Assembly: GCA_000998135.1 (NCBI GenBank)
Contig: LCCV01000006.1
Span: forward strand, 1-53,624
Length of the DNA stretch: 53,624 nt
Source: Parcubacteria group bacterium GW2011_GWA2_42_14
GTDB lineage: Bacteria > Patescibacteriota > Minisyncoccia > Sungbacterales > GWA2-42-14
Reading direction: 5' to 3'
Shown: positions 6,975-18,089 of the stretch, piece after piece
Numbering within the stretch: position 1 is the first letter of the stretch
Layout: each line of letters begins with the position of its first letter
The notes under the pieces: model-generated
What the model was told of the DNA's origin: nothing
The model's input: only the letters and a program-made list of their open reading frames with translations
Database searches by the model: none
Made by a program: the position numbers and the translations under genes

Positions 6975-7325
6975 TTATTTCCGAATCCCGACCTCTAACC
7001 TTTCAAGCCATTTTCCATGGCGGTCATGAAGTAATTTATCAGCCGCATGATCCTTTTCCGCTTTATCGAATTTCGTACCAATCCCGTCTACCGCCTGCAA
7101 AATTTTAACCTCGCTTTCCTTTACATTATCCTTAGTGGCAAAGTTCTTCAAATCTTCCTTGGTAGTAAAATTTTCAACCATGTTCCGGCTTAATTCTTTC
7201 AAATCATCCTTCGTAGCCATGTTTTTCCGAACAGCAAAAAACTCGTTAGCGGTCATGCGAGCCAGTTTATCCAGCGTCACTTTTGCTTTTTTAACAACTT
7301 TTCCCACTATCTTTAATTTAAACAA
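6975..7325 (-). CDS. Small coiled-coil protein with ATKxDL repeats
   Basis: ATKDDL / TTKEDL / ATKDNV repeats; C-terminal HGKWLERLE. Confidence 0.7.
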   Translation of the reverse strand: MFKLKIVGKVVKKAKVTLDKLARMTANEFFAVRKNMATKDDLKELSRNMVENFTTKEDLKNFATKDNVKESEVKILQAVDGIGTKFDKAEKDHAADKLLHDRHGKWLERLEVGIRK

Positions 7326-7422
7326 AAATGCTTTTCAAGGCAATATGGACAAAAAATTGAAAATATGTCGTTATTTTATTTAGTAGCAAGAAACATGCTA
7401 CATGTCGCTTGTTTCATGTCGC

Positions 7423-8661
7423 TCAGGGTATAAACACCTTAAACCAATTCTTGATTTTTGAACTGACCGATTCAAATGTTGGGTTATAAAAATAGCGATT
7501 GTCTCCGGACAATTGGTTTACCTGCCAGGCGACAAGGCCCAAAGCAACCGGATAAGTAAAAAGCAGCTCTTGCAGATTCTTGTCCGTGGGCTGGGGCAAA
7601 TTTACTTTTTTCCCGACTTCAATGGGCAGGCGCAGTTCTTTTTTGGCAATTTCTTCAATTCCGGGAATATGCGACGCTCCGCCGATTAAAACGACTCCGG
7701 CCGGCAAAAGGCCAAATCTGTCAATACGCTTAAGTTCTTTGGAAGCAAGCTCAAAAATGTCTTTAAACCGCGCTTCCACAATTTCGGCAATATGGCGCTT
7801 AAGATAAACATCATCTCCGTTTAAGCCAAAATCAGCAAGTTTAATAACGTCTTTTTTGGAAAATAACTCGGGAATTGCATGTCCGTATTCAAGCTTGATT
7901 TTCTCGGCAGTATCAATGTGCACTTGAAGCCCCACGGCAATATCATGAGTAATATGCGTTCCGCCAACAGGAAAAACTCCCGCCTGAACCAATCTTCCCT
8001 CCTCCCAAACGGAATAATTTGAAGTTCCTCCGCCAATATCAAGAAGCATAACCCCTAATTCTTTTTGGCGCCGAGAAAGCACTGCTTCGGCTGATGCCAA
8101 AGAGGAAAATATAAAGTCGTCAATTTCCACACCCGCCCCCTCAACGCATTTTATAATGCTTCTTAAAGCGGATTTGGAACCGTCAACAATCATGGCGTCC
8201 ACCTCAAGCCGTATTCCCGTCATGCCGACCGGGTCCTTAATCCCCGACTCATTATCAATTTTGTATTCCCTCGGAATAATATGGATTATTTCCCGATTAG
8301 GATTTTTAGGAATGGAATTTTCCGCGGCCTGAATAACACGCCTTACATCTTCTTCGGCAATTTCGCCATCTGCCCTGGATATGGCCACTACCCCTTTAGT
8401 GTTATAAGTATTTATATGAGTGCCGCCGACCCCCACTACCGCTTTTTTAATGTTCATGCCCGAGGCCTTAGACGCTTCCTGAATGGTTTTTTTGAGAGAT
8501 ACCGTAACTTCATCAATATCAACAACCGAGCCGCGCCTCATGCCGAAAGTCGGGCCTTGAGCCACGCCTAAAATCCGGATTCCTCCGTCTTTCTGCCTTT
8601 CGGCAACAATAGTGGAAATAGCAGTGGTGCCTATATCAATTGTGGTTATAATACGCCTCAT
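7423..8661 (-). CDS. ftsA: Cell division protein FtsA
   Basis: IDIGTT, DPVGMTGIRLEV, LDIGGGTS, GGTHITHDI, AEKIKLEYG, VLIGGAS. Confidence 0.97.
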   Translation of the reverse strand: MRRIITTIDIGTTAISTIVAERQKDGGIRILGVAQGPTFGMRRGSVVDIDEVTVSLKKTIQEASKASGMNIKKAVVGVGGTHINTYNTKGVVAISRADGEIAEEDVRRVIQAAENSIPKNPNREIIHIIPREYKIDNESGIKDPVGMTGIRLEVDAMIVDGSKSALRSIIKCVEGAGVEIDDFIFSSLASAEAVLSRRQKELGVMLLDIGGGTSNYSVWEEGRLVQAGVFPVGGTHITHDIAVGLQVHIDTAEKIKLEYGHAIPELFSKKDVIKLADFGLNGDDVYLKRHIAEIVEARFKDIFELASKELKRIDRFGLLPAGVVLIGGASHIPGIEEIAKKELRLPIEVGKKVNLPQPTDKNLQELLFTYPVALGLVAWQVNQLSGDNRYFYNPTFESVSSKIKNWFKVFIP

Positions 8662-8726
8662 TACTTTTGAATTATGAATTAAGAATCATGCATTATGGCC
8701 GTTTCCTAATTCCTAATTCATAACTC

Positions 8727-9125
8727 CTAATTCACAAAATCAATCTTGGAAAGAATTTCTTTCTCTATACGCTCTGTTTTTTTGGCTATATCGCCGGACT
8801 CCTCATGATGCATTCCCCCTAAATGTAGCATACCATGCAAAATCATCCATGTCATCTGGTATTTATAAGAATTGTCCTGCTCTTTTGCCTCTTTGCGGAT
8901 AACTTCCGGACACACCAAAATTTCACCATAATCCTTGCCGTAGCAAAACGATAATACGTTGGCCGGCTTATTTTTATGGCGATATTTTCGGTTAATTTCG
9001 CGCGATTCCCCTTTCGATACCTCTTTTACTATAATTTCTTTGGGCAGTTTTTTTATAACCGCTTTCGGCAATAATTTTTTAATAGTTTTAATTATTGTGT
9101 CCATTTTAAGCATTTCTATCCCCAT
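8727..9125 (-). CDS. ybeY: rRNA maturation RNase YbeY
   Basis: INRKYRHKNKPANVLSF, GEILVC, HGMLHLGGMHH metal motif; start uncertain (ORF open to 9251). Confidence 0.9.
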   Translation of the reverse strand: MGIEMLKMDTIIKTIKKLLPKAVIKKLPKEIIVKEVSKGESREINRKYRHKNKPANVLSFCYGKDYGEILVCPEVIRKEAKEQDNSYKYQMTWMILHGMLHLGGMHHEESGDIAKKTERIEKEILSKIDFVN

Positions 9126-9332
9126 TACCCATGACCCTCCTTCGCTAAAACTTCGGACGGGCGCAGCACTTTTTATATTTCCTAACGAGGCCATGCGAAA
9201 ATTTATTTTCGTGATGGCCGAGCGACGGAAATTTAAGAAATGCCGTGGCATTTCTTATATTTCTTGTCGCTACCCTACAAATATTACAATTGACTAACAA
9301 AAATAGTACGGCTTAAACGTACTATTTTTTCT

Positions 9333-9824
9333 TTATTCTGGCAACATCTTTTTAACCGCGGCGCTTACCCTATCGCCCGACGCCTGCCCTTTTACTTTTT
9401 TCATCATCTCTCCCATTACACGGCCGAAGTCCTTAATGGTAACACTCCCCAAACCGGCAACCGTGTCGTCAACTAATTTTTCCAATTCTTCGTCCCCCAT
9501 TTCCTTGGGCAAATACGCTTCCAAAATTTTAAGTTCAGCCGATTCTTTTTCAACCAAATCGGCCCTTCCGCCTTTTTCAAATTCTACGATTGCATCGCGC
9601 CGTTTTTTTGTTTCAGAACGTAAAGCGCCAAAGGCCTCCTCATCATTAAGTTCGCTTTCTTTTTCCAGGTTTTTGGTTTCCGGGTTTTTAGAAAGTTTCG
9701 TCCGCTTTTCAATTTCCCGATTCTTAATCGCCGCCAAGAGCATCCGCAAAACCGAAAGCCGCAGTTCTTCCTTATTCCGCATCGCTTCTTTTCTTTCACC
9801 CTCAATTGTCTGCTTGATATTCAT
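9333..9824 (-). CDS. yqeY: GatB/YqeY domain protein
   Basis: RLSVLRMLLAAIKNREIEK, KKRRDAIVEFEKGGRADL, YLP, DFGRVMG. Confidence 0.92.
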   Translation of the reverse strand: MNIKQTIEGERKEAMRNKEELRLSVLRMLLAAIKNREIEKRTKLSKNPETKNLEKESELNDEEAFGALRSETKKRRDAIVEFEKGGRADLVEKESAELKILEAYLPKEMGDEELEKLVDDTVAGLGSVTIKDFGRVMGEMMKKVKGQASGDRVSAAVKKMLPE

Positions 9825-9862
9825 AAAAAAATAATGTGGTTCGCCCACACTGCAACAATCAA

Positions 9863-10093
9863 TTATATCCCAACACGCATCAGTGGCTCATGAATAAGCG
9901 AAATGGCCTCGCAGATATTTTTTAGGGCCTCGTCAAGCGTTTTTCCCTGACTGTAACACCTTTCAAAAAGCGGGCATTCCACCACATAAAAACCATCCTC
10001 GTCTTTTTCCACAAAAAGCGGCAGCTGCAAATTATTTAATTTTCCGCCTGAGGCGGATCCGCCTTTGGCGGAAGATTTTGCCTGTATTGTCAT
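9863..10093 (-). CDS. HicB-like antitoxin domain protein (orphan)
   Basis: VEKDEDGFYVVECP...CYSQGKTLDEALKNICEAI is the HicB N-terminal pattern; N-terminal AKGGSASGG comes from a DNA palindrome. Confidence 0.8.
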   Translation of the reverse strand: MTIQAKSSAKGGSASGGKLNNLQLPLFVEKDEDGFYVVECPLFERCYSQGKTLDEALKNICEAISLIHEPLMRVGI

Positions 10094-10249
10094 AACGATT
10101 CTATATTACCTAAAAAATCCCATAAAATCAAATCCTAATGTTGGTATGTTATTTGTTTGCCTTGAAACGGGCCGAAAGGGCTCGCCCTGAGATTGCCGAG
10201 GGGTTGCCGTTTCCGGATAATTTCTTTACTTTCGATTACGAAATTATAT

Positions 10250-10367
10250 ATCAGCGTAGATTCAGCGTACTCATCAGCGTTTTATCAGCGTTAACAACCT
10301 TTTCACGCCGATTTTTCGCTGATTATTACGCTGATACCTCGCTGAAATTGTATTTTGCAATTCAGGA
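10250..10367. repeat. TCAGCG/CGCTGA periodic inverted repeat
   Basis: Four TCAGCG units followed by CGC(T/C)GA units; right arm shared with 4572-4621. Confidence 0.8.
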
Positions 10368-10452
10368 TTCTTTAACATTCGCAGGCACGTGTAAAATTTA
10401 CGAAAAATCAAAAAAGGTACCTGACACCAATTTTTGACACCAATTTCCTTTT

Positions 10453-10884
10453 TTAACGTTTAGTAAAGAAAGCAAAGAAAAGCAATAATAACGCTATCCA
10501 CGTCAAAGATGTTAGTAAAATATCCCAAAGAGGCATACTTCGACTTTTTGATTTTATTGCTTTCCGAATTAAGTCTTTTGGTACTGGATATGCCACGCCG
10601 AGTTCTTTGGGAAGAATACGTACTTCCCAGTATAAATCAGGTATACGACTTATCATTATAAGAATGATGCTAATTAAAAATAAAACTCCCCACCAATAAT
10701 ATATGTAAAAACAAATTCCTATTGTAGCCAAAATGGATGTGAATGTAACTAAATGATTACCAGAAACCAAGGGTTTTTCAAAAAAGCCTCTTCCCACCAT
10801 ACCAACAAGGTTAGTTCCTAAATAAGTAATAATAAACCAAGTAATTACTGCCTTGAGTATTGAAATAAAAATAAAGGATATCAT
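10453..10884 (-). CDS. Hypothetical multi-pass membrane protein
   Basis: 143 aa with about four hydrophobic segments; AT-rich. Confidence 0.7.
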   Translation of the reverse strand: MISFIFISILKAVITWFIITYLGTNLVGMVGRGFFEKPLVSGNHLVTFTSILATIGICFYIYYWWGVLFLISIILIMISRIPDLYWEVRILPKELGVAYPVPKDLIRKAIKSKSRSMPLWDILLTSLTWIALLLLFFAFFTKR

Positions 10885-10934
10885 AGTTTTATATCAAATT
10901 TACGACCTGTGGCCATGAGACGATGTTGGAGCTT

Positions 10935-11504
10935 TTATAGTCCGAGTAACTTATGAATTGTGGCGGGGTCTAATCCGAAATCCGCCCCTATCCTTAAGGC
11001 CTTAGATAAAATATCGGTCGCGCTCTTAATGGTTGGCAACGCCGACTTTAACTTTTCGAGAAAACTCCTCTCTTTTGTGCCTTCGGCATATTTTGGAATT
11101 TCAGATATGATCTTTTCCTGCAATTCAAGCGCGAAATTTAAAAATTGGGACTGATTCTGCGATTGATTTTGGATGAAGGTATTTCCGTCGTTTTTTGTTG
11201 GCGTATCTAAACCGTATAATCCCTTTAGCCGACCAATAATAGAATTCAACTTGGCCTTAGCCGGAATTGGTTTTACTATATTTCCGCGGTCGTTAATATG
11301 CTCTGGCCTGATTCTATATGTAGCGACATCTTCAATTTCAGGACAAACAATAGGAACACGTTCGATAATAAGATTAGCATGAGCGCTAAAACCATTATCA
11401 TCGAACCAAGAATTTTTGCTCTCGATAGCAACCAGAAGGCCCTTTAGTTCTTCATATACACCTAGAATTGCTTTTTTATTTTTTTCGTCATCATTCATAC
11501 ACAT
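10935..11504 (-). CDS. Hypothetical protein
   Basis: 189-aa ORF; NQSQNQSQ linker and helical C-terminus; no family recognised. Confidence 0.7.
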   Translation of the reverse strand: MCMNDDEKNKKAILGVYEELKGLLVAIESKNSWFDDNGFSAHANLIIERVPIVCPEIEDVATYRIRPEHINDRGNIVKPIPAKAKLNSIIGRLKGLYGLDTPTKNDGNTFIQNQSQNQSQFLNFALELQEKIISEIPKYAEGTKERSFLEKLKSALPTIKSATDILSKALRIGADFGLDPATIHKLLGL

Positions 11505-11611
11505 TTATAATAGATTCAGTAACCGACCTCTTCGGGTGTCGAACCCATCTCAAGATGGCTAAAGAAAAAGGTGTCAGACAGCTTTTTGACACCTTTTTCA
11601 TGCAAAATGTT

Positions 11612-12085
11612 TCAATCCATTTTTAGTTCAACTTCAAGGGGTATATTTGCTACCTGAGTAAATTCTTTTTCATCTTGGTCTTTAATATTCACTAAAATTT
11701 CATACTCACCATTTATTGTAATAGGCAAAGAGTTAAACCTATTTCTATACCTCATATTTTTTATTTCCTTTCTAAAATCAACCCTTTTGAGAAATTTTCC
11801 AATTTCTACTTTTTGAGGATCGATAATTACAACTTCTATATCAACGGAGATTGCCTTATCAGTATTTTTCTTAATTCTGGTAACCAATTCAAAATTAACA
11901 GGAACAACCAATTTTCCAATCTTTTTTTGTTTTTCAATTTCGGTAATTTGGTTTTTTGGTGGTGTAAAAGTAAGTTTTTCAACCAAATTGAAAAGACTTA
12001 AATTATTACTTTCTTGATCCAATACAGAATAAAGACAAAGTACTGACCATATGTGTCTGTATGTTTTATTTTCAACTTTTGCCAT
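11612..12085 (-). CDS. DUF6941-like beta-sandwich protein, third gene of the TA operon
   Basis: WSVLC..SVLDQESNNLSLFNLVE start and DP..., GEYEILV...IPLEV pattern; 8 bp after the antitoxin stop. Confidence 0.65.
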   Translation of the reverse strand: MAKVENKTYRHIWSVLCLYSVLDQESNNLSLFNLVEKLTFTPPKNQITEIEKQKKIGKLVVPVNFELVTRIKKNTDKAISVDIEVVIIDPQKVEIGKFLKRVDFRKEIKNMRYRNRFNSLPITINGEYEILVNIKDQDEKEFTQVANIPLEVELKMD

Positions 12086-12093
12086 ATAAATTA

Positions 12094-12531
12094 TTATTTT
12101 TTTATCGCTTTTAATTTTAAAATGCTATGTCCATTGATTAAATCATCTACTGTCAAATTACTGTAGCGTTTTGTATACGCCACCCCCGTCCCAACCACAC
12201 TTTCAGTAACTGTTGATTCTGGTAAAACGTTTTGTGTGACCGTGTCTGCTTTATCCATAAACCCAAATTTGATAATTAAATATGTGCCAAGCGCTTTTGC
12301 AATTTTATCCAAAAAACCTACATTTGGAAGAAATTTTCCGCTTTCAAGCCGGGCGATACTCGGTTGTTGAGTTTTAATTAATTTTGCCAGATCCTTTTGA
12401 CTAAATCCGCCATGTATTCTTGCGGCGGTTATTAGATTACTTACTTCCACATGAACATCGTGATCTAAATAAATCTTTTTAAAGGACGGCCTTTTTGCTA
12501 TTATTTTTTGTATGATTGAATCTAATGACAT
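12094..12531 (-). CDS. XRE/HigA-type HTH antitoxin with ~50-aa C-terminal extension
   Basis: ARIHGGFSQKDLAKLIKTQQPSIARLESG...LDKIAKALG; directly downstream of the RelE-like gene. Confidence 0.85.
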   Translation of the reverse strand: MSLDSIIQKIIAKRPSFKKIYLDHDVHVEVSNLITAARIHGGFSQKDLAKLIKTQQPSIARLESGKFLPNVGFLDKIAKALGTYLIIKFGFMDKADTVTQNVLPESTVTESVVGTGVAYTKRYSNLTVDDLINGHSILKLKAIKK

Positions 12532-12568
12532 ATTTTTTTATTTTTTAATTATTAAAAATCCAATTTTG

Positions 12569-12946
12569 CTATCTTTGAAATCTTTTGTCCCAATCATCAG
12601 CTCGTTCACGAGCCTTTCCAATATATTTTAAAACCCTTCCATTACTTCCACTCCCCTTAAACATTTCTAGAATTATTATTTTATTACCTCGAACAATACA
12701 GACTGCCCGATACTGCGGAGAGCGTTTAAACTTCAATTCAAATAATTCTATATCCGTTCCCTCTATAACATCTAGGAAATCACTCCTGTTTTTAAGTTGT
12801 GAGATACGATATTCTTGAAAATTTATTAGTTTTTTCGCAATAAAATCGATGTCTTTGTCTGGAAGCGTGAGAAGAAAATCACCAAAAGGCGAGTTTCCTT
12901 GCTCGTCTTCGTAAGGCTCTATAAGCAGTTTTTCGTCGGTTTGCAT
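12569..12946 (-). CDS. RelE/ParE-superfamily (HigB/Gp49-like) toxin
   Basis: YEDEQGNSPFGDFLLTL, LFELKF, YRAVC, IIILEMFK, KARER pattern; toxin-first gene order. Confidence 0.75.
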   Translation of the reverse strand: MQTDEKLLIEPYEDEQGNSPFGDFLLTLPDKDIDFIAKKLINFQEYRISQLKNRSDFLDVIEGTDIELFELKFKRSPQYRAVCIVRGNKIIILEMFKGSGSNGRVLKYIGKARERADDWDKRFQR

Positions 12947-12977
12947 ACACTATTTGGTTTGTTTTTTGAAGCATAGT

Positions 12978-13005
12978 TAATATATAACAAATTTGTTATA
13001 TATTA
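12978..13005. promoter_or_regulatory. Perfect 28-bp palindromic operator overlapping the TA promoter
   Basis: TAATATATAACAAATTTGTTATATATTA is its own reverse complement; minus-strand TTGCTA at 13009-13004. Confidence 0.8.
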
Positions 13006-13102
13006 GCAAGCAGGTATGGAATGTACAAGGGGCATTGTGTATAAGTGGTTCATTTGTTATAAACCAGAATTCAATACCTGGCAGCGTTTTTTTTGCAATA
13101 AT

Positions 13103-13420
13103 CTAAAATTTTTCCTCGTAATGATTGTCTTTGACGTATCCCTGTTCATCCTCATCTTCGGTATCTGCATAATGATAATCCAACAAGGCATTTATTAACT
13201 TTCCCGTTCTGTTCGCCCTAATTTGTAGAATATGCAAAGCGTCACTAGTTGCAATACTTCCCAACTCATCGTTTATATTCTTCAATTTGGCAGTTTCATG
13301 GGCGTAACGAAATATCTCCTTCCAAAGTCTGTTAATTTGGGCTTTGTGTCCATAAACAAAAAAATGTAACAAACCCCAAGTAATAACTACTATTAAAATA
13401 ATTAGTAACGAAATACTCAT
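13103..13420 (-). CDS. Hypothetical protein with N-terminal TM helix
   Basis: 105 aa; hydrophobic N-terminus and acidic C-terminus. Confidence 0.65.
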   Translation of the reverse strand: MSISLLIILIVVITWGLLHFFVYGHKAQINRLWKEIFRYAHETAKLKNINDELGSIATSDALHILQIRANRTGKLINALLDYHYADTEDEDEQGYVKDNHYEEKF

Positions 13421-13617
13421 TTATTTTTTATTTAACATTAGTTAACCCAAAAATCTTGGATTCAAACTAACTTTTTTTATTCTCCCCCAAAACGAGGCGG
13501 TGCGGTCGAGGGCAATATGATTTAAAACAAATCAGAAAATAGCACCTGCCAATATTCCCTAAAAGCCCGCTTTTACCAGTATTTTTAGCCAATTTGTGGA
13601 TAAACTGTGGAAAGGCC

Positions 13618-13646
13618 TTGACTTTTAAGTAGGAAGGGTATAAACT
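13618..13646 (+). promoter_or_regulatory. Antisense sigma70 promoter facing the NYN gene 3' end
   Basis: TTGACT(13618-23)-17 bp-TAAACT(13641-46); no + strand gene downstream. Confidence 0.6.
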
Positions 13647-13651
13647 TTAAG

Positions 13652-13710
13652 CATCATCAGGAAAAGGCACTGCTTTGGGTTTCGTCCCCTAGTGGTGCCT
13701 TTTCATTTTC
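13652..13710 (+). ncRNA. Putative ~55-nt hairpin sRNA antisense to the NYN gene 3' end
   Basis: GAAAAGGCAC/GTGCCTTTTC stem extended by G-U pairs only on the + strand; U-rich tail; promoter immediately upstream. Confidence 0.45.
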
Positions 13711-14229
13711 AGTTTTCACTATAAAAACATCTTCATTGGTTTTTAATATCTTCTCCCCCACTTCTTCCAAAAATTGTATCTTGTCTTGAGCGGCCTTTTT
13801 TAAAAGTGCCGAACACTTATCTTTATTAGGGCTTATAACGGCAGAAAGTTTCGACTTTTTTCTTAAGTATCTAACAACGGTGTCAAAGTCGCCATCACTA
13901 GTAATAAGTACTGCTCCATCATATTCCTTATAGTAACGCATTACACTAAATGCAAGATCAGCGTCTATATCGCCCTTGGGCTTCATTCCGTTCCTTGCCG
14001 GTAATACCGGTTTAAACTTCAAAAGATATCCTTGTTCTTGTAGTTCTGCGTATAAATCCTGATTTTCCGGTATATATCCTATAAAAAGATATGCCTTCTC
14101 AACATTATACTTTTCCTTCAAATATATACGAAGCTTCTTGTAGTCTAAATCTAGACCAGCTGCTCTTGTCCCCAAGTATAAATTTTGGCCATCAATAAAA
14201 GCATAATTTTTCTTTAACTTGTTCGGCAT
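13657..14229 (-). CDS. NYN domain (LabA/DUF88, PIN-like) RNase
   Basis: AFIDGQNL, KGDIDADL, LITSDGDF acidic motifs. Confidence 0.92.
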   Translation of the reverse strand: MPNKLKKNYAFIDGQNLYLGTRAAGLDLDYKKLRIYLKEKYNVEKAYLFIGYIPENQDLYAELQEQGYLLKFKPVLPARNGMKPKGDIDADLAFSVMRYYKEYDGAVLITSDGDFDTVVRYLRKKSKLSAVISPNKDKCSALLKKAAQDKIQFLEEVGEKILKTNEDVFIVKTENEKAPLGDETQSSAFS

Positions 14230-14508
14230 AATTAAATTTCCAAAAAGGCTTTTTATAATTCAGTTTCTTTCCCTCAGTGCGAGCCCGCCGTAATTTTCCA
14301 TTTCTATTCCACCAAGCGAAACGGTGCAGTCGAAAATAATATAATTTTGAAACAAATCAAAAATCGCAACTCCTTTCACCTTTTTAAGCAGTCCTGATTT
14401 TATTAAGAAAACCATCTCGCAGGCCGAGCGGGGTCGCAAAGCGACGGGTTGTCCGGGGGACAACCCCGGGCTTTTGCGAAAAGCAAAAGTGATTCCAAGA
14501 AAACTATT

Positions 14509-14548
14509 GAAGTCGGACTTCCATAGTGCGCTATTGAAGTCCGACTTC
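14509..14548. repeat. REP-like inverted pair of 13-mers
   Basis: GAAGTCGGACTTC(14509-21) / GAAGTCCGACTTC(14536-48), each preceded by CTATT. Confidence 0.75.
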
Positions 14549-14551
14549 ACG

Positions 14552-14797
14552 CTAATACACCCGCTCTTTCATTTTTCCCAGCTTCACCAATCTTTCCCTT
14601 TCTTTTCTCGCCTTAAGCCGCCGCAGAGCGCCTACTTTCCTTGCGCGCTTATTCAACGGGCGTTTATATGACTTCATTTTTCGCGCCTGAAGCAAAACTC
14701 CCGACTGCTGGATAATGCGGGTAAAACGGCGAAGCATCGCCGAAGATGTTTCTTTGTCTTTTTTGATTACGTAAACCAAATTAGTGACATGTAACAT
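14552..14797 (-). CDS. rpsU: 30S ribosomal protein bS21
   Basis: VIKKDKETSSAMLRRFTRIIQQSGVLLQARK...; basic; hisS-HIT-rpsU-yqeY context; true start may lie a few codons downstream. Confidence 0.8.
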   Translation of the reverse strand: MLHVTNLVYVIKKDKETSSAMLRRFTRIIQQSGVLLQARKMKSYKRPLNKRARKVGALRRLKARKERERLVKLGKMKERVY

Positions 14798-14856
14798 GCG
14801 ACATGAAACATGTTAACCAAAAACTTGTCTCTTGTCTCTTGTCACTTGTCTCTTCT

Positions 14857-15204
14857 TTATACACGAAATTTATCCTGGTCTTTCTCCTTTCCCCATCCAC
14901 CAAGCAAATGCAGATGCAGATGGTCCACAACTTGACCTCCTTCCCTGCCCACATTAAAAACCAGCTTATAACCGGCCAGATCCTCATCTTGGGCAACTCT
15001 TTTGGCTACATAAATCAATTTAGAAATAATTTCATTGTGATTCGCTTCCAAATGGGCAATTGACTGAATGTGCGCTTTGGGCACAACCAAATGATGAATC
15101 GGCGCTTTGGGATGAATATCTTTGAATACTACAACATCGCTGTCCTCATAGACAATGTCCGAGGGTATTTCTTTTTTGATGATTTTGCAAAAAATGCAGT
15201 CCAC
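14857..15204 (-). CDS. HIT (histidine triad) family protein
   Basis: DCIFCKI, DIHPKAPIH, GQVVDHLHLHLLGG; GTG start 15204. Confidence 0.95.
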   Translation of the reverse strand: MDCIFCKIIKKEIPSDIVYEDSDVVVFKDIHPKAPIHHLVVPKAHIQSIAHLEANHNEIISKLIYVAKRVAQDEDLAGYKLVFNVGREGGQVVDHLHLHLLGGWGKEKDQDKFRV

Positions 15205-15278
15205 GTTTGAGAGACATGGGGTAAGAGACATGAGACAAGGACGACGTTTCCATGTCGCATGTCACATGTCACTTGTCG

Positions 15279-16709
15279 CTATTTCTTTAGCTTCTTTTTA
15301 AGTATCTCAATCATTTTACTCTGCGGTATCACTTCCTGAATTCCGGAGGACATCTCACGGATTATTATTGTTTCATCAATCGCTTCTTTTTGGCCCAATA
15401 TCAAAGAAATGTCCGAGCCGGATTTATCCGCAAGTTTCAATTGCGATTTTACGGAATCGCGCCCCAGGGATTCGCCGACCGCAATTCCGTTCTTTCTTAA
15501 TTCTTCAAAAATCTTAAAACTTTTCTTCTTGCCCATGTCGCCGAGCTGGACAAAATATACCCGCTGTTTTGGTTCTCCCGGCACTTTTAACCCCAATGAC
15601 TTCATAAGCGCCACCAATCTTTCCATTCCCAAAGCGCCGCCTACCGCCGGTTCAGCGCGCCCGCCCAAAAGCGAAATAAGATTATCATATCTGCCGCCCG
15701 AACCCAAAGCAATACCCTTAAGAGCTTTCGGCTTTTCTTCTATTTTCACTTCCGCAATTACTTCCCCTTCAACTATCGGTTTTTCCGCTTCCTCGATTTT
15801 TTCCGGAACTTTTTCCAAAACGGCCCCCTTCTCTTTTTCACTTTCTAATTCGCCGGCCCAGTCCGAATCGGTAAAAATCTCAAAAACCGTTCTGGTGTAA
15901 TAATCTAATCCGCGAACCAAATACGGATTAAGAATATAAGGAATTCCGGCTTCATCCAAAAATTCAAGCAAAGACGTAAAATGTTTTTTGCAGGCCTCGC
16001 ATAAACTATCAAGCAATTGAGGAGCGTTCTTCTTAAAAATCCGGCATTTTTCTTCTTTGCAATCAAGAATGCGCAAAGGATTTTGTTTTAAACGCCTTTT
16101 GCAGTCCCGACAAAGGCCTTTGGCTTTGGGGCGATAGTATTGCAATAATTGTGAACGATATTGAGGTCGGCAATCACTGCAACCGACGCTATTTACGTGA
16201 AAATAAAATTCCGGAATGCCTAATTCGCGCAAAAATACCGAAAAAACATGGATAATTTCCGCGTCCACCACCGCGTTTTCATCTCCAATTATTTCAAGCC
16301 CGATTTGATTTAATTCGCGGAACCTAAGCCGCTGGGGAGATTCATGCCTGAAAAAAGAGCCAATGTAATAAAACTTTACCGGATGGGGCTCGGCTACAAA
16401 ACCATTTTGGAGATAAGCCCGGACAACGGAAGCGGTTCCTTCGGGCCGAAGCGTTAAGTCGTCCCCGCCTTCGGTTTGAAAAGAATACATCTGTTTTTCA
16501 ACAATATCCGTTTGGGTTCCCACGGCCTGCACAAAAAGCCCGGTTTCTTCAAAATGCGGGGTATCAATGCGTAAAAAATTATAATAGGAAAAAACATTCT
16601 TGGAAACACTGCGGATACGCTCCCAGTATTTCTGGTCTTGAGGAAGAATATCATGCGTTCCTTTCGGAGAGGAAAACGATTTTGGTTTTATTTTTCTATG
16701 ACGTCCCAA
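15279..16709 (-). CDS. hisS: Histidine--tRNA ligase
   Basis: PKGTHD, LRPEGTA, FRHESPQ, LVRGLDYYTRTVFE, GGRYD, GMERL; acidic insertion. Confidence 0.97.
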   Translation of the reverse strand: MGRHRKIKPKSFSSPKGTHDILPQDQKYWERIRSVSKNVFSYYNFLRIDTPHFEETGLFVQAVGTQTDIVEKQMYSFQTEGGDDLTLRPEGTASVVRAYLQNGFVAEPHPVKFYYIGSFFRHESPQRLRFRELNQIGLEIIGDENAVVDAEIIHVFSVFLRELGIPEFYFHVNSVGCSDCRPQYRSQLLQYYRPKAKGLCRDCKRRLKQNPLRILDCKEEKCRIFKKNAPQLLDSLCEACKKHFTSLLEFLDEAGIPYILNPYLVRGLDYYTRTVFEIFTDSDWAGELESEKEKGAVLEKVPEKIEEAEKPIVEGEVIAEVKIEEKPKALKGIALGSGGRYDNLISLLGGRAEPAVGGALGMERLVALMKSLGLKVPGEPKQRVYFVQLGDMGKKKSFKIFEELRKNGIAVGESLGRDSVKSQLKLADKSGSDISLILGQKEAIDETIIIREMSSGIQEVIPQSKMIEILKKKLKK

Positions 16710-16777
16710 AATTAACTAACAACTAACAACCTACAACCCACAACTTTTGTTGTTGGTTATTGGTTGTATGTTGTAGG

Positions 16778-17374
16778 TTAGTAAACTGGTTCTGGAATCA
16801 ATCCGAATTTACTCGGTGGCCATGCCCTGAAAAAAGCCCTGCCCGTAATAAATTTTTTATCAAGCGGCCCCCAACTTCTTGAATCAGAACTATTGCGCCG
16901 GTTATCCCCCAAAACCAGATATTGAACTTTATCCAAAACATATTCTTTTTCGGGAAATGTTTTCAGGTCCGAAGGCAAATAATCCTCTTGAAGAAAAAAT
17001 GGCTCATTGGCTTCACTACCGCTCTTTATCAAAATTTGCCCGTTTTTAATAACAATCGTTTCTCCGGGCATTCCGATAATCCTTTTTATAAAAAATTCTT
17101 TGGGATTATTGGGATAGCGAAAAACAACCACCTCTCCTCTTTGGGGCTCGCGGAACTGATAAGTTAGCTCATCAATTACCAAATATTCCCTATCTTCAAA
17201 GGATGGCTCCATTGACTGCCCCTTAACAATAAACGGCTGGGCTATAAAATAGCGTATGGGCAGGGCGATTACCAGAGCCAGAAGAATTACCTTGCCAAAC
17301 TCCCAAATCTCCCGCCAGGCCGTTGTCTTTTCTTTGGGCTTTTCCTCGCTTAAAACTTTGTTTTCTTCAGCCAT
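16778..17374 (-). CDS. lepB: Signal peptidase I
   Basis: GQSMEP (Ser), FIKRIIGMPGE (Lys), LGDNRRNSSDSRSWG. Confidence 0.96.
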   Translation of the reverse strand: MAEENKVLSEEKPKEKTTAWREIWEFGKVILLALVIALPIRYFIAQPFIVKGQSMEPSFEDREYLVIDELTYQFREPQRGEVVVFRYPNNPKEFFIKRIIGMPGETIVIKNGQILIKSGSEANEPFFLQEDYLPSDLKTFPEKEYVLDKVQYLVLGDNRRNSSDSRSWGPLDKKFITGRAFFRAWPPSKFGLIPEPVY

Positions 17375-17501
17375 AAAGATGAGTATATACCATAAAAAAC
17401 ACTTTTGCAAATCATAAAAATCTATTATACTTAACTTACAACCTGCAACCAAAAACCTACAACGCGCGTTGTCGGTTATCGGTTGCTAGTTGTTGGTTAA
17501 A

Positions 17502-18089
17502 ATGTATCTTTTCATCGGCCTCGGCAATCCCGGGCCAAAATTTGAAAATACCCGCCACAACATAGGGCGGGAGACACTAATGAAATGGCAGGTAAACCTC
17601 AAACTTGCCCCTTTTGAATTTGATAAAAAATGGAATGCCCTTGTTTCCAAAAATAAAAAAGCGATTTTATTATTACCCGAAACGTTTATGAATAATTCCG
17701 GGAAAGCAATTGCTCCGTCAATAAGTTTTTTCAAAATCAGGCCAAAAAATATTATCGCGCTTCATGATGATTCTGATATAGAATTCGGACGAACCAAGCT
17801 TTCCTTCGCCAAACATTCTGCCGGACATAAAGGAGTTGAATCAACCAAACGCGCCATCGGCACTTTGGATTTTTGGCGGCTCCGCATCGGCATTCAACCG
17901 CCCCTTCGGGCGAGTCTCACCAAAGGCGGAAAAAAGAAAAGAGTTGACGCCATGAAACTCGTTTTGCAAAAATTCAAACCGGACGAGGAAAAAACCCTTA
18001 AAAAGGTTATCAAAAAAATTCTGGAAGGACTTGAAATAATTATTGCGGACGGTCCGGAACAGGCGATGAATTTCTTAAATCAAAATTAA
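17502..18089 (+). CDS. pth: Peptidyl-tRNA hydrolase
   Basis: GLGNPG, TRHNIG, PETFMNNSG, HDD, GHKG, RLRIGI. Confidence 0.96.
   Translation: MYLFIGLGNPGPKFENTRHNIGRETLMKWQVNLKLAPFEFDKKWNALVSKNKKAILLLPETFMNNSGKAIAPSISFFKIRPKNIIALHDDSDIEFGRTKLSFAKHSAGHKGVESTKRAIGTLDFWRLRIGIQPPLRASLTKGGKKKRVDAMKLVLQKFKPDEEKTLKKVIKKILEGLEIIIADGPEQAMNFLNQN

Follow-up and report, generated by a model that had tools for sequence, protein, structure and literature searches.

A three-gene toxin-antitoxin cassette with a tailed HigA-type antitoxin and a DUF6941-related third gene in a Parcubacteria genome: a candidate SecB-independent counterpart of TAC systems

Toxin-antitoxin-chaperone (TAC) systems combine a toxin-antitoxin (TA) pair with a SecB-like chaperone that recognises a disordered C-terminal chaperone addiction tail (ChAD) of the antitoxin (10.1101/2024.02.24.581848). 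The length and sequence of ChADs are variable, and a ChAD can be moved from one antitoxin to another (PMC5105189), the HigA-type repressor of a TAC system acts at a palindromic operator (PMC6377645), and in the systems as described in the sources used here the third protein is in each case SecB-like and doubles as a phage sensor (10.1101/2024.02.24.581848; PMC11618068). These sources form the TAC precedent used here (PMC5105189, PMC6377645, 10.1101/2024.02.24.581848, PMC11618068), and the systems that we compare are M. tuberculosis HigB1-HigA1-SecB(TA), E. coli HigBAC, MqsRAC and CmdTAC. The locus compared with them is a cassette of three genes on contig LCCV01000006.1 of Parcubacteria group bacterium GW2011_GWA2_42_14, of which the whole stretch analysed (positions 1 to 53,624, 53,624 nucleotides) is referred to below as the window. 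It encodes a HigB-type toxin, an XRE-type antitoxin with a long C-terminal tail, and a third protein remotely related to the DUF6941 family. We consider the chances evenly balanced that the cassette works like a TAC system without SecB, its third protein acting on the tail of the antitoxin.

The cassette and the TAC systems are both tricistronic, with the order toxin, antitoxin, third gene, and both have a variable C-terminal antitoxin extension that is absent from two-gene relatives. In both, the third gene is common to unrelated TA families; the Gp49/HigB toxin of the cassette is of the same kind as M. tuberculosis HigB1, and both have a palindromic (here probable) operator. They differ in that the third protein of the cassette is remotely DUF6941-related and not SecB-like, and in that the TAC-like function of the cassette is a proposed one. 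The partners of its third gene are XRE/HigA, DUF2283, unknown helical and ribbon-helix-helix (RHH) proteins, whereas the TAC antitoxins are HigA, MqsA, HicB and CmdA, and the aromatic ChAD motif of SecB(TA) clients is not seen as a conserved feature of the cassette tails. Because a SecB-like identity is the only one of the architectural features that is missing, the cassette is not a TAC member as these systems are defined, yet it may work like one. HipBST systems also have three co-transcribed genes that include a helix-turn-helix (HTH) protein, but there the extra gene originated when the toxin was split, and its product acts as antitoxin (PMC9325769), whereas the third gene of the cassette is an unrelated add-on tied to the antitoxin tail. 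An earlier note on this DNA had proposed that the cassette is undescribed, and in agreement with it no description was found in the searchable literature, although non-SecB third genes in supplementary lists of TAC loci would escape such a search.

The features of the cassette are collected in the table. The coordinates of the open reading frames (ORFs) and a palindrome search agree with the earlier note's account of three co-oriented genes, separated by gaps of 37 nt (toxin-antitoxin) and 8 nt (antitoxin-third gene), behind a perfect 28-bp palindrome. Between the palindrome and the toxin ATG downstream of it are 32 nt. The 22-nt core of the palindrome has a single match in the window (none in 100 shuffles) and a single one in the complete 1.24-Mb genome, and similar palindromes with a half-site of the TATA(T/A)A(G)CA type are found 5' of the toxin gene in three other loci (L002, L003 and L014 of the survey described below). 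It is a probable operator of the XRE antitoxin dimer. At the other end, just past the third gene, a hairpin that the earlier note does not mention, with 18-nt arms (89% complementary) forms a 13-bp stem with a folding energy of -18 kcal/mol (z -3.0; 1 of 200 shuffles equal), so that palindrome, three packed genes and terminator make up a compact unit of about 1.45 kb. This is the tricistronic TAC layout of a TA pair followed by a third gene, and the order is kept in related loci. A sigma-70 promoter scan was uninformative (6 sites against 7.8 expected); we note that TTGCTA and TATATT hexamers flank the palindrome, as seen by eye alone.

Table. Features of the three-gene cassette, in window positions
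Feature	Position	Strand	Assignment or basis
Palindrome, perfect 14+14 nt, 100% complementary	12978..13005	.	Probable operator for XRE antitoxin dimer
Toxin gene, Gp49/HigB type (RelE/ParE superfamily), 125 aa	12569..12946	-	ORF list and profile search
Antitoxin/repressor gene, XRE-type HTH and C-terminal tail, 145 aa	12094..12531	-	HTH_3 match
Tail-encoding part of antitoxin gene, T/V/S-rich, residues 93-145	12097..12255	-	Past HTH
Third gene, remote DUF6941 relative, 157 aa; proposed antitoxin-tail partner	11612..12085	-	Profile comparison
Probable intrinsic terminator, hairpin then U-rich stretch	11564..11599	-	Folding of mRNA strand

The first gene encodes a protein whose match to the Pfam Gp49 model (PF05973) lies below threshold (16.7 bits against a cut-off of 23.9, E 0.0075), whereas 14 toxins of related cassettes elsewhere score above it. 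A profile (A4) built from 18 cassette toxins finds two solved HigB toxins, that of S. pneumoniae (6af3_A, E 2e-9) and M. tuberculosis HigB1 (7nbu_Y, E 1e-6), the latter being the classical TAC toxin. The HigB/RelE-type assignment made in the earlier note is upheld at the family level by these structures. Homology to solved HigB toxins is accompanied by basic residues at or near the catalytic positions: R68, R77 and K95 are catalytic in the M. tuberculosis toxin, according to PMC9098466, and K72, R80 (invariant in A4) and K97 of the window toxin lie at, or one column from, these three positions, the third being the one that is an alignment column off. Toxins of the PF_gp49 group are described as ribosome-dependent mRNases whose gene comes first (PMC11980606), and the window toxin is probably a ribosome-dependent mRNase of the HigB type. 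PADLOC models gave no match to it.

The antitoxin has an HTH_3 domain (PF01381) at residues 36-83 (E 4.7e-11, 43 bits against a cut-off of 23), its gene directly follows that of the HigB-type toxin, and its nearest solved structure is S. pneumoniae HigA (6af3_B, E 3e-6); it is accordingly placed in the XRE/HigA group. Toxin and antitoxin belong to one HigB/HigA lineage with the TAC toxin of M. tuberculosis and with S. pneumoniae HigBA. The tail (DKADTVTQNVLPESTVTESVVGTGVAY...) that had been reported beyond the HTH is indeed present and comprises 62 residues after the HTH match. In other cassettes with an XRE antitoxin this extension is 44-73 residues long (median 56 in 25 loci, a count that leaves out L048 and the duplicate L035), and 59-61% of tail residues are S, T, N, Q, G, P, D, E or K.

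Two-gene Gp49/HigB-HigA modules, such as S. pneumoniae HigBA (PDB 6af3) and the loci of this phylum with antitoxins of 89-117 amino acids, resemble the cassette in having a homologous toxin and HTH antitoxin, toxin gene first, and are likewise probably autoregulated through a palindrome. They differ at the C-terminus: in two-gene Gp49-XRE loci of the same order the antitoxin ends 3-10 residues past the HTH in 8 of 9 scorable cases and 30 residues past it in the other, against the 62 residues and the additional gene of the cassette, and the third gene is absent from all 11 such loci. Across the phylum, the best 30 Gp49 loci, which are best-scoring matches and include many close kin, have 31 downstream antitoxins, 30 of them 89-117 amino acids long and the other 46, and none of these loci carries the third gene. 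A parallel difference is found with an unrelated antitoxin family, as DUF2283 proteins of cassettes have 93-110 amino acids, and 26 of 27 control proteins, taken from 30 loci that lack the third gene, have 68-88. The middle proteins of a further cassette type (type C, below) also have C-terminal tails, which cannot be aligned. The lengthening of the tail is therefore specific to loci with the third gene, and it corresponds to the ChAD extension of TAC antitoxins in being absent from two-gene relatives; like a ChAD, the tails are presumably disordered. We also note one contig (L093, positions 1426-2670) on which a two-gene Gp49-XRE pair is immediately followed by a DUF2283-DUF4258 pair with the antitoxin gene first and an untailed DUF2283 protein of 75 amino acids, whereas in the three-gene cassettes DUF4258 comes first.

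The third protein was compared with DUF6941 at several levels. Against the Pfam DUF6941 model (PF22091) it scores 17.8 bits, and because this is below the gathering score of 27 we do not file it as a Pfam member. A scan of 1.84 billion representative sequences gave 1176 relatives at E<=1e-3 and 336 at E<=1e-10, and of the 68 clade members that were aligned (alignment A1), 42 match DUF6941 at E<=0.01. Comparison of A1 with an alignment of 18 canonical DUF6941 proteins (A5) by hhalign gave a probability of 97.6% and E 3.3e-12 over 129 columns at 15% identity. The third protein is thus a remote homologue of DUF6941, and the family-level assignment of the earlier note stands even though the Pfam score falls short. 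The A1 profile is matched by only 4 of 27 canonical DUF6941 genes at E<=1e-3, and the third gene therefore represents a separate clade within the DUF6941 superfamily. Its ESM Atlas model has a predicted TM score (pTM) of 0.85 and a mean local confidence (pLDDT) of 0.87, and its structural neighbours are DUF6941 clusters with TM 0.70-0.81; among named Atlas clusters outside DUF6941 the best score, 0.76, is at chance level. The two groups are also of similar size. They differ in gene context, canonical genes lying in chaperone and protease operons and the third gene in TA-like cassettes. The fold is a putative beta-sandwich, as weak Ig-like sequence matches suggest, and no solved relative was found by sequence.

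The earlier statement that the third protein is not SecB was borne out by hidden Markov model searches, in which SecB (PF02556) gave no match to it at E<=0.1 and none to the 68 clade members at E<=0.01. SecB was found neither in this genome (95% complete) nor in any of 401 genomes of the phylum (0/401); the genome does encode ClpP (two matches), Lon and DnaK. Pfam scans of the third protein and its relatives gave no DNA-binding family and no HSP20 match, the latter in general scans that included no test aimed at HSP20/alpha-crystallin kinship. PADLOC defence models did not match the third protein, and no relatives of its gene were found on viral contigs or plasmids. One ESM Atlas cluster consists of Actinomycetota proteins of 342 amino acids in which a DUF6941-like domain is joined, in part of the members, to an HNH_2 nuclease domain.

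The neighbourhood of the third gene was surveyed in four sets of sequences. Of 61 related genomes 4 gave a match, as did 5 of 401 genomes of the phylum; a one-genome-per-species collection, searched with 15 closer sequences, contributed 20 loci, and metagenome contigs contributed 61. Loci were kept if the third gene matched the A1 profile at E<=1e-15, and removal of nine duplicates (L035, L040, L041, L050, L056, L063, L064, L067 and L068) left 48 non-redundant loci. In 26 of them a Gp49 toxin gene is followed by an XRE/HTH_3 gene and then the third gene (class A), in 6 the order is DUF4258, DUF2283, third gene (class B), in 10 a gene for a 168-amino-acid NlpC/P60-like protein precedes one for a conserved unknown protein and the third gene (class C), and in one (L043) the third gene follows that of a NikA-like RHH protein (class D). 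The upstream ORF is unclassified in 3 loci (L049, L057 and L062), one locus (L044, the same as L063) has no adjacent upstream gene, and one lies at a contig end with no upstream room. A recognisable middle gene hence stands directly 5' of the third gene in 43 of the 47 loci with upstream room, with a median gap of 3 nt (39 loci; -45 to +20 nt in 35 of these), and the co-occurrence with TA pairs for which the earlier note had called is borne out. No decayed toxin or antitoxin remnants were found upstream of the third gene in L044, L047, L049, L057 and L062.

Among the 22 XRE loci with room for a first gene, its product matches Gp49 at E<=0.01 in 18 (14 above the cut-off), is alignable in 3 and is different in 1, and DUF4258 is found 5' of DUF2283 in 5 of the 6 class B loci. 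The three-gene order recurs in other genomes with different surroundings (L002, L003, L008-L011, L012-L017), and named records with the cassette come from Saccharibacteria, Paceibacterota, Magasanikbacteria and Nomurabacteria. More distant DUF6941-type genes (E ~1e-6 to 1e-11) of Polyangiaceae and soil contigs do not lie beside TA genes. One contig (L013) has two cassettes, one of type B and one of type A, separated by 1.3 kb. Both include a third gene, the two genes being 32% identical, an arrangement that suggests cognate specificity.

Several of these loci deserve description in their own right. The class C loci (L019, L023, L039, L054, L058, L060, L069 and L071, and also L059 and L065) come in part from Chloroflexota records; in their first protein one Cys and one His are invariant, and its matches to NlpC/P60, DUF7689, CHAP and PDB entries are weak, and their middle protein is helical, 167-226 amino acids long, with a variable tail, and lies outside known families. 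These two genes may be an undescribed toxin-immunity-like pair. Two copies have decayed. In L003 (positions 1492-2009, genome G045) two ORFs, of 56 and 109 amino acids, are what is left of the third gene beside an intact TA pair, and in L070 (positions 491-1429) it keeps its first ~86 residues, after which a methyltransferase-like frame follows.

Canonical DUF6941 genes, present in 28 of the 401 phylum genomes, were analysed at 27 loci (that of G214 was left out). They lie between dnaK and dnaJ in 5 of the 27 and directly after dnaK in 1 (the dnaK-linked loci are L138, L143, L147, L153, L155 and L157), and beside a gene for a ClpP-like SDH-type protease in 2 and for a PrsW protease in 1. Because its genes adjoin dnaK/dnaJ and a ClpP-like protease gene, the DUF6941 superfamily is tied to protein quality control. 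The term DUF6941 was not found in the searchable literature.

On the reading that we favour, a single promoter, overlapped by the 28-bp palindrome, would drive all three genes and would be repressed there by the XRE antitoxin dimer. The antitoxin would neutralise the HigB-type mRNase, and its disordered tail of about 55-60 residues would render it unstable or poorly soluble. We infer that the DUF6941-related protein, translated right after the antitoxin, would bind this tail and keep the antitoxin functional, stabilising rather than destabilising it. If the third protein were lost, titrated (for example by a phage protein) or not made, ClpP or Lon would then remove the antitoxin, and the toxin would stop translation.

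Several observations weigh against this reading. The tails of 24 cassette antitoxins share no alignable motif, and their only common feature is a weak one, the last 8 residues being more hydrophobic than the remainder of the tail in 20 of 25 XRE and 5 of 6 DUF2283 antitoxins. No fusion of antitoxin and third protein was found among longer proteins, which is itself weak evidence. The link to dnaK belongs to a different subfamily, since 23 of the 27 canonical genes fail to match the third-gene profile. The window toxin has FKGSGS where most relatives have F-x-KK-x-x-IP, and because of this deviation and the score below the Pfam cut-off its activity is uncertain. In 16 cassettes, finally, the identities of antitoxin cores and third proteins are uncorrelated (rho 0.08; 526 of 2000 permutations as high), whereas those of toxins and antitoxins are correlated (rho 0.32; 4 of 2000) and those of toxins and third proteins weakly so (rho 0.23; 32 of 2000). 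The missing co-divergence of antitoxin and third protein may reflect swapping of modules, of which a weakly supported quick tree gives an example by joining L043 (RHH partner) and L037 (XRE partner) as sisters; even so, it lends the reading no support. The earlier note's proposal of a TAC analogue is thus upheld as regards architecture, by the linkage in 43 of 47 loci and by the absence of tails from two-gene relatives; the role of tail-binding chaperone or sensor that it gives to the third protein is a hypothesis, for which the comparison of antitoxin core and third protein showed no co-divergence.

A third protein that destabilises the antitoxin would yield an identical genomic pattern, and the alternative closest to the favoured reading is accordingly that it binds the tail and acts negatively or as a switch, serving as a protease adaptor or as a sensor through which the antitoxin reaches ClpP or Lon, or from which it is let go when a trigger is met. 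The same linkage to tailed middle genes fits such a role, canonical DUF6941 genes do occur beside genes for ClpP-like SDH-type proteases (2/27) and PrsW (1/27), and the TAC chaperone doubles as a phage sensor in the systems covered by 10.1101/2024.02.24.581848 and PMC11618068. A constitutive, co-translated destabiliser would, however, be toxic to its carrier unless tightly regulated, no such regulation is apparent in the DNA, and the dnaK-dnaJ context (6/27) is commoner than the protease context; we consider this role unlikely. The third protein might instead act on the toxin or independently of the tail. It could add to neutralisation or to repression, or be an effector or immunity protein in its own right with the TA pair as its regulator. 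The Gp49 and DUF4258 partner toxins share the BECR fold, according to PMC11980606, toxin and third protein show the weak correlation given above, and the Atlas cluster in which a DUF6941-like domain is fused to an HNH nuclease domain also speaks for this. Yet the third gene follows unrelated NlpC/P60-like modules (10 loci) and an RHH gene without a recognised toxin (L043), it always adjoins the middle gene and not that of the toxin, it is the middle proteins that bear the extra tails, and the third protein matches neither a PADLOC model nor a DNA-binding family, so that a role of this kind seems distinctly improbable.

It could also be supposed that the third gene is a functionally unlinked passenger of small mobile modules. 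Such an origin would account for the locus without an adjacent upstream gene (L044), for those in which the upstream gene is unclassified (L049, L057 and L062), and for the split third gene next to an intact TA pair in L003. The recognisable middle gene in 43 of 47 loci at a median distance of 3 nt, the restriction of long tails to loci with the third gene, and the absence of that gene from the 11, 30 and 30 control loci argue the other way, and the passenger explanation, already disfavoured, has very little left to recommend it.

The cassette lies in a region of about 4.7 kb (window 9850-14550) that is missing from three genomes of the same family (G004, G005 and G001). In these the yqeY-like gene adjoins the rpsU region, and the region is therefore an insertion here. 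It is bounded by a yqeY/GatB-like gene (9333-9848) and rpsU (14552-14797), and looks like a small variable island. In another genome (G054) the cassette lies between aminoacyl-tRNA-synthetase-like genes, and, judged from sequence comparison, the three-gene module is a self-contained unit that appears to behave as mobile DNA. Besides the cassette the island contains a HicB-like gene, two ORFs for small membrane-like proteins, a 189-amino-acid ORF and a NYN-domain gene. The HicB-like antitoxin gene (9863-10093) encodes 76 amino acids (HicB_lk_antitox, E 6.5e-7), and no obvious HicA partner was found among nearby ORFs of at least 40 amino acids. The 189-amino-acid ORF (10935-11504), just past the cassette terminator, has 45 homologues (32-75% identity), all unnamed and with no Pfam domain, and was not found beside the cassette in other loci.

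Short repeats occur at window positions 10038-10079, 10227-10365, 14383-14497, 14784-14874 and 15210-15285, and none of them matched an Rfam family. A palindromic repeat unit of ~40 nt recurs, on either strand, in several of the family's genomes, and units of ~140 and ~110 nt have several copies elsewhere in the genome at 73-92% identity. An Rfam search of window 9300-15300 matched no family, and a tRNA search of window 7000-18000 found none.

A broader idea, which we regard as conceivable if somewhat doubtful, is that the DUF6941 superfamily comprises unrecognised small ATP-independent (co-)chaperones. One branch would work within the dnaK-dnaJ operon, and another would have been recruited repeatedly as addiction partner for the disordered tails on the middle proteins of two-gene conflict modules of four or more unrelated kinds (Gp49-XRE, DUF4258-DUF2283, NlpC/P60-like with a helical protein, and RHH), a SecB-independent reinvention of chaperone-addicted TA defence in phyla without SecB. 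At the level of the cassette, the third-gene family has links to several families of antitoxin, and its phylum is one in which no SecB was found. With a length of 1.4 kb the cassette is small enough for a direct test of the idea in E. coli. If it is true, a second, unrelated family would occupy the SecB slot, and a tail with a dedicated helper would be a general, convergently evolved way of arming TA modules. It would also give the first functional handle on DUF6941, and would provide testable candidates for phage defence or stress switches in bacteria of the candidate phyla radiation (CPR), whose biology is largely unknown.

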